Positions 24,412 through 56,081 of a stretch of DNA of 64,000 nt are shown here, piece by piece. Every line of letters begins with the position of its first letter. Position 1 is the stretch's first letter. The translations under genes were made by a program, and so were the position numbers. Origin of the DNA: Candidatus Omnitrophica bacterium CG11_big_fil_rev_8_21_14_0_20_41_12 (GTDB taxonomy: Bacteria; Omnitrophota; Gorgyraeia; Gygaellales; Profunditerraquicolaceae); NCBI GenBank assembly GCA_002796135.1, contig PCWB01000027.1, positions 1,724 through 65,723 of the forward strand. Reading direction: 5' to 3'. Under the pieces are notes generated by a model that saw only the letters and a list, made by a program, of their open reading frames with translations, was not told the DNA's origin and did not search any database.

Positions 24412-24894
24412 TTAATTAGTTTTTGGGGATTCAACGGTGAGTTTTTTATAAGCACCTTCTGTATCAGAATAAGCGTACATCCATACGCAACAATGTAGAA
24501 GCTTTCTTGCCTGAGAAAAAACCATTTTCCATTGGCCAAAGATCGGATTTTTAACTTTAAAATGTAATGCTTTTCCTAATCCTTCAAGCGGACCGGAAGC
24601 ACGCTTATAAGGATATAAATTACCTTTTGGATCTATCAATTTTACATCTACTAGCTCACAATCAACATACCAACCCACAAAATCATCTACATCATAGATT
24701 TCGAACGTTACAGTAACTATAGTGTTTGGTAATACGTCAAAAAACTCGGTAGCTCGGGTTTGGAACTCTTTATAATCTTTTGGAGGCTTATGTTCATTAT
24801 CTTCACCAAAAGAGACATAACATCCTGCCAGGATTAAAATTACTAATATAATAATTCCTTGTTTAATCATAAACTTTTGCTTTCTCTTTTCCAT
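24412..24894 (-). CDS. Putative lipoprotein of unknown function
   Basis: Signal peptide with lipobox LAGC (ILILAGCYVSF). No recognisable domain. It occupies the position where ftsZ would be expected. Confidence 0.5.
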   Translation of the reverse strand: MEKRKQKFMIKQGIIILVILILAGCYVSFGEDNEHKPPKDYKEFQTRATEFFDVLPNTIVTVTFEIYDVDDFVGWYVDCELVDVKLIDPKGNLYPYKRASGPLEGLGKALHFKVKNPIFGQWKMVFSQARKLLHCCVWMYAYSDTEGAYKKLTVESPKTN

Positions 24895-25000
24895 CCCTCT
24901 TCCTATTTTTTATTTCCTTTCCACTGCTTTCAGTACTATAAAAATACGTTGCTAATTTATATTACTATACCACAAATCCTAAGATTTTAAAAAATTAATA

Positions 25001-25200
25001 GCGTCTGGCTGGGCTGTGTTTTCGAGGGACGTGGAGGCAAGGAGCGGGCACGATTCACCGGCTATTGATACTCAATGAAAGCGACGCCAGCCGATCCGAG
25101 CGCAGTTACGGCACGCCGAGCCGTAACAAGCGTTCCCGAGAAAACACAGACAAAACAGATGCGTACACCCGGTGCTTAATGGTATTGCGCCGGTGTTCCG
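25001..25200. ncRNA. GC-rich, highly structured element of about 200 nt, a candidate small RNA (6S-like?). Identity and strand are unresolved.
   Basis: The segment is conspicuously GC-rich in an AT-rich genome and no ORF of 60 aa or more lies in the 318-bp gap. A long-range 18-bp closing stem pairs CTGTGTTTTCGAGGGACG (25014-25031) with CGTTCCCGAGAAAACACAG (25131-25149). There is an internal hairpin GTTACGG-N9-CCGTAAC (25105-25127) and a 3' hairpin CCGGTGC-N11-GCGCCGG (25169-25193). No tmRNA, RNase P or SRP signature motifs were found. Confidence 0.3.
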
Positions 25201-25212
25201 CAGGTGCGTAAA

Positions 25213-26466
25213 TTAAAAATATTCCTGATAAACTTCTTTGCAGCGGTTAATTACTTTGAAAAGCAGGTTCTTGGCGGGCTTTACTATTGCAAGATTTCCT
25301 ATTGTTTTACCTTCCAGGTCTTCACAGATCATTCCCAGACAGGTCAGATAAGTCAAATATTTCTGTCCGGATAGATCACTATTCTCTTTGGCTAACGCTG
25401 CAATCTCCGGATTATGGATCCTGCCGATACTTACGGGAATGCCCGTCACAGTCTCCATCATCTCAATAAATCCGTCAGTAAGCAGGGTTTTACCGACCAT
25501 AATAAAATTATCAACTTCATGCAATGCCACTTTTCTCTCCACAACCTCTTTAATCTGCGAACAGATCAGGCGTCCGAAGTTAGTGGCCATCTGCACTACT
25601 TCGCGCTGCCTGATCGGCTTATAAAATTCATCTTTCTTAACTAAAATTTCTTTATTTTCCGGAATACTGCTTGCATCCGCAATAATTCCATAGGAACGCT
25701 TGATATCTTCGGCCAGCTCAAAATTAATTTTCAATCCTTCGGAAAGCTGTTCGGTCATGCTGTTGCCGCCTAAGGGCAGGATCTGAATATCCTGCAGAAG
25801 TCCGTCTTTAAATATAAGCAACTCCGTAACATCGCTACCTACATCGCAAAATACGCTTAACCCTTTCTTTTCTTTACTACCCAGCACCGCCTTACTGGTA
25901 GCTAGCCCTGAAAAAGAAAGACTTCTGATTTCGCATCCGCATTGGCTTACAGCGCGGCTTAAACTTTGCAAAGAGGAAAGCCTAGCACAAACTAAATATA
26001 AATCTACCTCCAGCCTGTGGCTGTATAAACCGATCGGATTAATAACATTGCTTTTAGAATCTATAGAATAACTGGACGGAATCACATGAATTATTTCATC
26101 TTCTAAGCTTGAGCCCAGGATACGCGCCTGTTCATTAGCAGAGGCTATATCGGTTGAAGTAACTACTTTATTACCGCGCTCAGCAAGCGGAATAATCGCA
26201 TGGCTATGTTTAGTGGAGATATCTTTGCCGGAAAAATTAGTATGGATAAATTTTATCTTTAATCCGGATTTGGCCCGCAGGCTTTTGATGATCTTACCCA
26301 GACAAACAACCAGTTGCGTAGCGTCGACGATAACTCCTTCTTTTACTCCGCTAGAAGGCAGGCAATCAAAAAAGATATCCTCAATACGATTCTTCTTTAT
26401 TTTTGCCAATGAAGCAGAAATTTTATTTGAACCTATGTCAATTGCGCAGATATAATTATTTAGCAT
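25213..26466 (-). CDS. ftsA: Cell division protein FtsA (actin-like)
   Basis: ICAIDIGSNKISASLAK N-terminus, ...DVGSDVTELLIFKDG... and a C-terminal amphipathic tail. It overlaps ftsQ by 11 nt. Confidence 0.8.
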   Translation of the reverse strand: MLNNYICAIDIGSNKISASLAKIKKNRIEDIFFDCLPSSGVKEGVIVDATQLVVCLGKIIKSLRAKSGLKIKFIHTNFSGKDISTKHSHAIIPLAERGNKVVTSTDIASANEQARILGSSLEDEIIHVIPSSYSIDSKSNVINPIGLYSHRLEVDLYLVCARLSSLQSLSRAVSQCGCEIRSLSFSGLATSKAVLGSKEKKGLSVFCDVGSDVTELLIFKDGLLQDIQILPLGGNSMTEQLSEGLKINFELAEDIKRSYGIIADASSIPENKEILVKKDEFYKPIRQREVVQMATNFGRLICSQIKEVVERKVALHEVDNFIMVGKTLLTDGFIEMMETVTGIPVSIGRIHNPEIAALAKENSDLSGQKYLTYLTCLGMICEDLEGKTIGNLAIVKPAKNLLFKVINRCKEVYQEYF

Positions 26467-50194: not shown

Positions 50195-50268
50195 TCGGGG
50201 CGGTGCGACTTGAACGCACGGCCTCTTGCTCCCGAAGCAAGCGCTCTACCAAACTGAGCCACGCCCCG
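50195..50268 (-). tRNA. tRNA-Pro (anticodon CGG); the 3' CCA is not encoded
   Basis: The reverse complement folds as a cloverleaf. The acceptor stem is CGGGGCG/CGCCCCG, with U8, a D-arm GCUC-AGUUUGGUA-GAGC, an anticodon stem CUUGC/GCAAG with loop UUCGGGA, a T-arm GUGCG-UUCAAGU-CGCAC, and discriminator A followed by UU rather than CCA. Confidence 0.85.
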
Positions 50269-55810: not shown

Positions 55811-56081
55811 TGTAAAAAATAAGCCCAAAAAGATAATCCTCGGGCATCGTAATTTTAATCTTCTTCCATCTGGACTTTCTCATACGCTTTTACACCCCGC
55901 GTTTATAAGATATTACGCGGGTGTTCGTTCGTACGAACCATCGGCCCTGGAATCTCACCAGATCTGCCTAGCACATTGTTTAAGCACCCAGCGCTAAATT
56001 GCATTGCGCTGGTGCCTGCTCGTGCAGGGCTCGCGGGCTAAACCGCCGGTAAGGAATTTCACCTTGCCCTAAAGATTAATT
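55811..56081 (-). promoter_or_regulatory. FMN riboswitch (RFN element) with a terminator-type expression platform, leader of the rib operon
   Basis: The reverse complement contains the RFN cores GGGCAAGGUGAAAUUCCUUACCGGCGGU, AGCCCGCGAGC and GAUCUGGUGAGAUUCCAGGGCCGAUGGU, plus the 3' strand GUCCAGAUGGAAGAAGAU. An extra inserted hairpin (CACCCCGCG...CGCGGGGUG) is present. A hairpin GCCCGAGGAUUAUCUUUUUGGGC followed by UUAUUUUUU lies just before the ribBA RBS. Confidence 0.8.

Follow-up and report, generated by a model that had tools for sequence, protein, structure and literature searches.

A multi-copy, covarying RNA family of Candidatus Omnitrophota without a match in Rfam 15, represented by a GC-rich element next to ftsA

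Our analysis concerns a 64-kb stretch of DNA from a Candidatus Omnitrophica genome (contig PCWB01000027.1), referred to below as the window, and within it an element of ~180 nucleotides (nt) at positions 24993–25169 of the plus strand. We show that this element is one copy of a folded, multi-copy RNA, here called family A. The element stands out by its base composition. In a profile of 200-nt intervals, the interval starting at 25001 had a GC content of 0.58, which is the peak of the 64 kb (mean 0.411, standard deviation 0.041), and it is the sole interval with a GC content of at least 0.55. On one side lies ftsA (25213–26466, minus strand; Pfam domains FtsA and SHS2_FTSA), and on the other an open reading frame (ORF) of 160 amino acids (24412–24894, minus strand) with an N-terminal signal peptide and a LAGC lipobox. 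Counted along the minus strand, the element is positioned 44 nt past the ftsA stop codon and 99 nt ahead of the lipoprotein start codon, and it is antisense to both genes. The single ORF inside the GC-rich stretch is a mechanical one of 48 amino acids with a TTG start, which is not conserved because indels of lengths not divisible by three, together with compensatory changes, distinguish the homologues. The preliminary description of this DNA, which had presented the stretch as the only markedly GC-rich one, as free of ORFs and as lying between ftsA and a lipoprotein gene, was thus accurate on these points. The only Rfam matches in the whole window were an FMN riboswitch (55854–56080, minus strand, 90.4 bits) and a tRNA (50195–50268, minus strand, 66.6 bits).

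Seed motifs taken from copies downstream of ftsA (GAGCGGGCA..RAGCGA..CGAGYGCAG) were used in a pattern scan of a metagenome collection, which returned at least 120 stretches; family totals are therefore lower bounds. About 90 of these stretches share the full architecture; the others are false positives from GC-rich coding DNA. A covariance model, R1, was built from 56 sequences and gave 117 matches in the metagenome loci, more than 20 of which do not fit the search pattern. Family A thereby comprises at least 113 copies, 109 of them distinct, in Candidatus Omnitrophota genomes and related metagenome DNA, where copies are counted per contig or stretch of metagenome DNA and not per complete genome. 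In the window, cmsearch with R1 found one copy, at 24993–25169 (+), with 125.2 bits and E = 7e-30 over model positions 1–181 of 181. None of the 4227 models of Rfam 15 gave a family-level match to the window copy or to the best-scoring copy at the gathering score or at E ≤ 10. The gathering score was applied to the whole window and 13 related loci, and E ≤ 10 to the window copy, a canonical A copy, a region holding families B and A (see below) and a copy of family C. These scans returned chance-level matches only, to RAGATH-28 (E = 1.2), 5.8S and a lncRNA. Likewise, family A had no match in phage, plasmid and viral collections, and the literature on Omnitrophota non-coding RNAs yielded nothing relevant.

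When folded alone, the element (24993–25169) reached −64.9 kcal/mol (z = −3.77), and none of 200 shuffles was as low. The family fold consists of a rod, P1, with a three-way junction on top, from which 2–3 nt lead from P1 into P3; the two arms of the junction are P3–P4 and P5. P1 is an interrupted rod of ~35 bp, extended to ~40 bp in many copies through U/A flanks, and it contains a conserved tandem G·A (UCGAG / GCGAGAA) and, close to the base, an asymmetric internal loop. In the window copy, where all parts lie on the plus strand, the rod appears as the interrupted inverted repeat I1 (25001–25029 / 25134–25162). Its helix P1a pairs GCGUCUG (25001–25007) with CAGAUGC (25156–25162) and includes one G·U pair, and P1b pairs CUGUGUUUUC (25014–25023) with GAAAACACAG (25140–25149); both are part of I1 and of the minimum-free-energy fold. 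The tandem G·A/A·G follows, with GA 25024–25025 opposite GA 25138–25139 (UCGAG / CGAGAA; conserved in alignments A3 and A4), and then P1c, with GGGAC (25026–25030) opposite GUUCCC (25132–25137) and U25133 bulged.

Beyond the junction, P3 is formed by GGAGGCAAG (25033–25041) and CGCCAGCCGAUC (25085–25096), with a GGC/GCC core, GG/(U)C and a top G–C pair. It is followed by the conserved strand GAGCGGGCACGAUU (25042–25055; family consensus GAGCGGGCAYGGUU in alignments A3 and A4). This leads into the P4 hairpin (25055–25078), which is weak in the window copy (UCAC / AUGA, i.e. 3 bp and a C·A mismatch, with a 16-nt loop). On the 3′ side of P4 lies AAGCGA (25079–25084; family consensus GAGCGA), the 3′ half of what we call module I, in which AGCG 25043–25046 faces AGCG 25080–25083. 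The conserved CGAGCGCAG (25097–25105) holds the 5′ AGCG of module II, where AGCG 25099–25102 faces AGCG 25129–25132 through the pairs G25100–C25131 and C25101–G25130. The P5 hairpin, GUUACGGC / GCCGUAAC (25105–25127; stem 25105–25112 / 25120–25127), coincides with a second inverted repeat, I2, and carries a heptaloop, ACGCCGA in the window copy and NCGCNGG in the family. CAAGCG (25127–25132), the 3′ half of module II, continues into the 3′ strand of P1c. The long-range helix 25014–25031 / 25131–25149 of the preliminary description is therefore real, as a segment of the longer repeat I1, and the internal hairpins that it mentioned are present as P5 and the weaker P4.

The fold is supported by covariation across the family. 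In the model-based alignment of 113 copies, which is fitted to the covariance model and hence biased towards the structure, standard pairs occupy 93.4% of the pair cells, compared to 70.1 ± 0.4% in column shuffles and only 35–45% when the partners are slid by 1–3 columns. Changes on both sides occur in 39 of the 41 pairs and in 837 cells (187 ± 13 in shuffles), and none of 500 shuffles reached any of five covariation measures. A structure-blind MAFFT alignment already contains the same compensatory pairs, and the annotated pairs rank first in a mutual-information scan. Covarying pairs are found in P1a (family helix 1; 6/6), P1b (helix 2; 12/12), P1c (helix 3; 6/7, with 96.3% of cells paired), P4 (helix 5; 4/4, 98.1%) and P5 (helix 7; 8/8, 98.0%). 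The compensatory changes in homologues on which the preliminary description had made its candidate structured RNA, possibly of a new family, depend are thus present.

P3 is complementary in at least 45 differing sequence versions. Its duplex energy was −9.0 ± 3.4 kcal/mol with its own partner and −4.6 ± 2.8 kcal/mol with a non-partner, and the mutual-information scan recovered its pairs 77–188, 75–190 and 80–183. A GCG/YGC pairing across the 3′ strand of P3, proposed by RNAalifold, was set aside because the strongly covarying P3 leaves no steric room for it. Apart from the nested helices and P3, the mutual-information scan revealed no further pairs of a tertiary kind; pairing of the P5 loop with P1, which had been suspected, was not supported.

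The conserved AGCG occurs four times and forms two modules, each of which consists of A·G, G–C, C–G and G·A and anchors one arm of the junction. In module II, covariation links the Y of CGAGYGC to the R of CAARCG (CG 90, UA 14, UG 3, other 1), as it does in the structure-blind MAFFT alignment (CG 43, UA 11, UG 2, C–A 0). For module I, support comes from one copy found by the model only (L100 8162–8311, where L numbers denote the loci compared), in which GAACGG faces GAGUGA, i.e. an A–U pair replaces G–C. Between these freely covarying helices, ~40 nt at the three-way junction and internal loop are highly conserved and mostly unpaired.

The functional strand can be read from the same alignment. 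In the paired columns, G·U/U·G combinations outnumber A·C/C·A (113 vs. 53) and G·A/A·G mismatches outnumber C·U/U·C (154 vs. 19), and the conserved unpaired strings are purine-rich on the plus strand. Together, these statistics identify the window plus strand as the functional one.

Several variants of family A were observed. Some copies have an additional hairpin domain of ~55 nt between CGAGCGCAG and P5. The insertion-bearing variants are L125 2704–2938, L136 872–1106, L151 4258–4487, L093 8189–8422, L001 5264–5464 and L103 1881–2079; in the copies of L001 and L103, the perfect palindrome CCUGCCUGCCGGCAGGCAGG is inserted where P3 starts. A divergent subtype, A2, is characterised by GAGCGGCCAAGG.., CCAAGCGAGG.. 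and the P5 loop UCGGUGG (L107 831–1008, L087 1873–2050, L158 614–777 and L137 8063–8232). Family A was also found on GC-rich contigs (58–62% GC: L158, L150, L100 and L064), so that it may reach beyond the AT-rich Omnitrophota lineage.

Family A copies showed no fixed relation to their neighbours. Of the upstream genes, 51 share the strand of the copy and 49 lie on the other one, and the downstream genes divide similarly (48 vs. 52); arrangements are tandem-sense (34), tandem-antisense (32), convergent (8) or divergent (6). When ORFs were clustered, whether the immediate neighbours alone or everything within 5 kb, no protein family recurred in more than 5 of 97 loci. The largest cluster is FtsA (5 loci). 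Judged by reading the sequences and not by a Pfam scan, the most recurrent neighbours appear to have housekeeping roles (FtsA, a Ddl-like ligase, LeuRS, GlmS and others). By the same reading of sequences, no transposase, reverse transcriptase, integrase or RAYT stood out among the recurrent ORF families of the 97 loci. Non-coding spacers are longer 5′ of the copies (median 174 nt) than 3′ of them (median 43.5 nt), independent of neighbour orientation. Many contigs carry 2–4 copies, with three on the 6-kb contig L045 and four on the 7.9-kb stretch L158. Copies on the same contig are 49–83% identical, no closer than copies on different contigs (mean 62%), and hence appear to be old paralogues. 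No direct repeats indicative of a target-site duplication were seen at the ends of the element; instead, the flanks extend the palindrome (UUUU...AAAA). Our results show that family A is a real, conserved and strand-specific folded RNA without a match in Rfam 15, which is multi-copy and unlinked to any gene.

At the ftsA locus itself, the FtsA protein is 74–90% identical to FtsA of 40 genome loci, all of them metagenome-assembled genomes of Candidatus Omnitrophota, some labelled 'uncultured Planctomycetales'. The gene order in the window and in L001–L040 is ddl-ftsQ-ftsA, then the RNA, the lipoprotein gene or nothing, and then yggS-proC. Here ftsA is not followed by ftsZ, and neither the 64-kb window nor any of the 40 related ftsA loci encodes the tubulin signature GGGTG[ST]G. 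Copies homologous to the window copy occur after ftsA in L001, L031, L008 (cut by the contig end) and L006 (in opposite orientation to ftsA). In the 40 relatives, the content of the ftsA–yggS spacer varies between A, a combination of B and A (either way round), C, REP-like palindromes, other kinds of repeat and no element at all. The REP-like palindromes are perfect and based on GGGGACGGTTCTATTT (L003, L010, L013, L020 and L037, sometimes several per spacer); half-sites of GGGGACGGTTCTATTT also adjoin A copies in L045 and L086. Another type of repeat is present in L005, L007, L024 and L027, and a GT-rich one in L019. The spacer further contains a textbook yggS promoter with an extended −10 element, TTGACC-N17-TGTGTATAAT, which is conserved in relatives (L015, L016, L018, L021, L032 and L038, ~30–60 nt after ftsA; L006 5683–5712). 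In the window, the 3′ end of the RNA and the ftsA stop codon flank an additional hairpin outside the family model (25167–25196, ACACCCGGUG..CGCCGGUGU). Read on the minus strand, this hairpin runs into a U-rich stretch, complementary to the A-rich 3′ strand of P1, and could thereby contribute to ftsA termination.

Family A copies often occur in divergent pairs with their 5′ ends close together (L087, L107, L150, L137 and, twice, L158); A2 copies mostly pair with a canonical copy in this way. In many loci the partner position is filled instead, in fixed relative orientation, by one of two other families, B and C, neither of which has an Rfam match. Family B is a GC-rich structured RNA candidate of ~230 nt, rod-like with an apical junction, for which 33 of 70 predicted pairs show compensatory changes. 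It contains two consecutive tandem G·A motifs (AGCGAAU / UGAGCGAG), and its ~24 G·U against 3 A·C pairs point to the strand opposite to that of A. Family B is almost always divergent from, and immediately 5′ of, an A copy, e.g. in L006 (5256–5480 in locus coordinates, functional strand minus) and L001 (5470–5691), and further in L152, L145, L066, L084, L118, L094, L056 and L075. The spacer between B and A is 12–30 nt long, AT-rich and TATA-like, and would fit a compact bidirectional promoter. Family C is a conserved GC-rich element (..GCAUUAGAAAAUUUUCGGCAA..GACGAGCG..GGGAGCGAG..CGGCGAAAAUUUUC..), usually at the 5′ side of an A copy. It was found in L039 (471–700), where it occupies the position after ftsA that A holds in the window, and in L133, L069, L111, L105, L098, L073, L061, L124, L151, L138 (two copies), L083 and L077.

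What might such an RNA do? We give about an even chance to the reading that family A is a stand-alone, stable RNA acting in trans, whose rod and G·A-rich modules would bind protein and whose variable P3 and P4 would distinguish the paralogues. The interval 24993–25169 (+) would then be one gene copy, transcribed as a unit of its own, and the asymmetry between the 5′ and 3′ spacers is consistent with such a gene. The RNA would most probably scaffold one or more proteins that recognise the G·A-rich modules and the rod, and the variable P3/P4 stems and P4 loop could tell the paralogues apart. The paired ends might be the ends of the transcript or the products of processing of the rod. The copies look like old functional paralogues rather than recent repeats, in that the fold was kept through at least 45 versions of P3.

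Several observations weigh against a stand-alone RNA. We found no sigma-70-like promoter (−35/−10, or a −10 peak) at a fixed distance upstream of the copies, and promoter-like matches were not enriched (12/87 vs. 8/87 on the control strand). The yggS promoter indicates that promoters of this lineage look sigma-70-like, which makes the missing signal noteworthy. No intrinsic terminator or U-tract follows the element, where the flank is A-rich, and the ~12–36 nt between the 5′ ends of divergent pairs leave little room for two promoters. The neighbour clustering of 97 loci brought no protein partner to light. The conservation of the three core motifs was partly imposed by the search pattern that collected ~90 copies, and copies found by the model alone keep these motifs mostly but not absolutely. 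Finally, the ftsA–yggS spacer carries the element in only 5 of 41 related loci, once inverted; this spacer is a repeat hot spot and looks like the product of insertion/deletion dynamics.

The main rival reading is that family A is a dispersed structured intergenic repeat of the ERIC/REPIN/BOX/Correia type, selfish or architectural, which would act through RNA or single-stranded DNA. We regard this as possible, if rather doubtful. The fold would then matter for mobility, or for an effect on the ends or stability of neighbouring transcripts, and not for a function in trans. Patchy presence and inverted orientation in the same spacer of close relatives, the GGGGACGGTTCTATTT palindromes and other repeats in that spacer, the random orientation to genes, the clusters and inverted pairs, and a 3′ end that abuts neighbouring genes without promoter or terminator signals would all be expected of such a repeat. 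Yet divergence is as high within a contig as between contigs, with no sign of recent bursts. Moreover, the stems change in a compensatory manner that includes G·U pairs, and unpaired junction nucleotides are conserved, which indicates selection on a folded single strand with a three-way-junction core and not on terminal repeats recognised as double-stranded DNA. Further points against a repeat are the absence of a conspicuous transposase, RAYT or integrase family within 5 kb in the 97 loci, of visible target-site duplications and of matches in viral, phage and plasmid collections. The related candidate of a recent MITE is disfavoured by the divergence of the copies, as compared within and between contigs, by the lack of a visible target duplication and by the same survey of 97 loci.

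It is unlikely, in our judgement, that family A is a new catalytic or self-processing RNA, for instance a class of self-cleaving ribozymes, in which the junction and internal loop would form the active site and the rod would join the ends. The ~40 conserved, mostly unpaired nucleotides amid covarying helices would suit a catalytic core, small self-cleaving ribozymes too are multi-copy and occur in both orientations, in varied contexts and in pairs, and family A shows no evident promoter or terminator of its own. However, the small self-cleaving classes are smaller than a core of ~110 nt with a rod of 35–40 bp, the sequence itself does not point to a cleavage site, and the ribozyme models of Rfam 15 (hammerhead, twister, twister-sister, pistol, hatchet, HDV-like and others) gave no match at E ≤ 10.

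The preliminary description had likened the element to 6S RNA, which mimics an open promoter and sequesters RNA polymerase. This comparison is invited by a similar length and by a long stem in which both ends pair, and 6S sequences are so poorly conserved that covariance models can miss them. The likeness did not withstand closer analysis: the covariance scan that had been proposed as a check, run against all Rfam families, gave no match even at E ≤ 10, let alone at the gathering score, the place of the central bubble is taken by a three-way junction with a 5′ joiner of 2–3 nt, the unpaired motifs are strongly conserved in sequence, and up to 3–4 divergent copies lie within 6–8 kb. That family A is the 6S RNA of this organism is therefore very improbable.

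The other suggestion, a leader of the lipoprotein gene on the minus strand, or more generally a cis element such as an ftsA 3′ untranslated region or terminator, is the least credible reading of all: the distances of 44 and 99 nt to the flanking genes, the stable fold of the minus strand (−76.5 kcal/mol, z = −2.08) and a weak terminator-like site (25171–25156, minus strand) would suit it, but the wobble and G·A statistics favour the plus strand, the L006 copy is inverted relative to ftsA, and the family as a whole has neither an orientation preference nor a recurrent neighbour gene. In short, we take family A to be neither a 6S RNA nor a riboswitch or leader.

A number of further candidates were rejected. 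For a riboswitch or leader, the orientation of the downstream gene (48 same, 52 opposite), the lack of a recurrent downstream family and the lack of an expression platform were decisive. An mRNA for a type I toxin–antitoxin peptide does not agree with indels that are not multiples of three and compensatory pairs in the variable stems, and a Shine–Dalgarno-like GGAGG occurs in one P3 subtype only. A tRNA-linked element was dismissed on the finding that tRNA genes lie near the element in only ~7 of 60 loci. Integron attC sites (R″/R′ RYYYAAC ... GTTRRRY) differ in that the ends of family A are mostly ..UAGCGGG / CCCGCUA.., i.e. AGC/GCU and not AAC/GUU; in addition, an attC array has one orientation and cassettes, whereas family A occurs in both orientations next to housekeeping genes.

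Families A, B and C all contain the G·A–G–C–G·A module, suggestive of a recognition element shared by all three. Tentatively, we propose that the three families may be branches of one Omnitrophota-specific structured-RNA system, typically arranged as divergent pairs across a short AT-rich spacer and carrying the AGCG·AGCG module on a long rod. They could be the RNA parts of a ribonucleoprotein machine with many paralogous 'cartridges', or a new class of ribozymes. We regard this proposal as possible rather than probable. To our knowledge, no counterpart of such a system exists among bacterial RNAs.

Bacteria of the widespread, uncultivated phylum Candidatus Omnitrophota are very small and probably depend on a host, and we know of almost nothing that has been established about their non-coding RNAs. 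We rate family A as a probable new RNA class, since we found no known family that fits it by covariance model or by architecture; in kind it might be a ribonucleoprotein scaffold, a ribozyme or a selfish repeat. Comparably ornate RNA classes have earlier led to new biochemistry, as in riboswitches, the omega RNAs of IscB/TnpB and RNA-only assemblies. Family A can now be characterised by more than 100 representatives, very strong covariation, many paralogues per region, two sibling families and a shared non-canonical module. With a covariance model, a secondary structure, a strand and the coordinates of its parts in hand, it is open to direct testing. A tempting mis-annotation as 6S RNA is removed as well, because the element is not the 6S RNA of these organisms.

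A comparison with known systems places family A among several types of RNA without matching any of them. It shares with 6S RNA (ssrS) a length of ~180 nt, ends paired in a long interrupted closing stem and, if our preferred reading of a stand-alone RNA holds, a non-coding gene of its own. The two differ in that 6S RNA consists of two long helices around a large central bubble, whereas family A has a three-way junction, with a covarying P5 hairpin and a paired module on the 3′ side and conserved unpaired motifs. Moreover, 6S RNA is present in one or very few copies per genome, whereas family A forms divergent paralogues, often in divergent pairs.

In topology only, family A is reminiscent of 5S rRNA, with a closing helix made by both ends, a three-way junction and two arms that bear a G·A-rich internal loop and a terminal hairpin. 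Its closing helix is much longer (35–40 bp vs. ~10 bp), however, no rRNA model matched at E ≤ 10, and the copies are scattered paralogues outside rRNA operons. Y RNA and YrlA resemble family A in a long basal stem of both ends with conserved irregularities that could bind protein, in a variable apical module and in several, possibly adjacent, paralogues. In contrast to these RNAs, family A has no rsr, rtcB or other recurrent neighbour, no Rfam match and no recognisable tRNA-like module, in a comparison made without a model of the Ro-binding motif.

ERIC, REPIN, BOX and Correia elements are likewise intergenic, in either orientation, long imperfect palindromes that are patchy at orthologous sites and sometimes form inverted pairs. 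Family A differs from them in being old and divergent, with a fold kept by compensatory changes and a conserved unpaired core, and no associated transposase or target duplication was seen.

The raiA motif, OLE, ROOL, GOLLD and HEARO have no similarity to family A in sequence or by covariance model. Compared to OLE, ROOL and GOLLD, family A is smaller, and it is linked neither to phages nor to insertion sequences; it also differs from this group in being multi-copy with divergent partners. What family A has in common with these ornate RNAs is the character of the molecule itself: many conserved nucleotides set in an elaborate covarying structure, without an obvious cis-regulatory logic.

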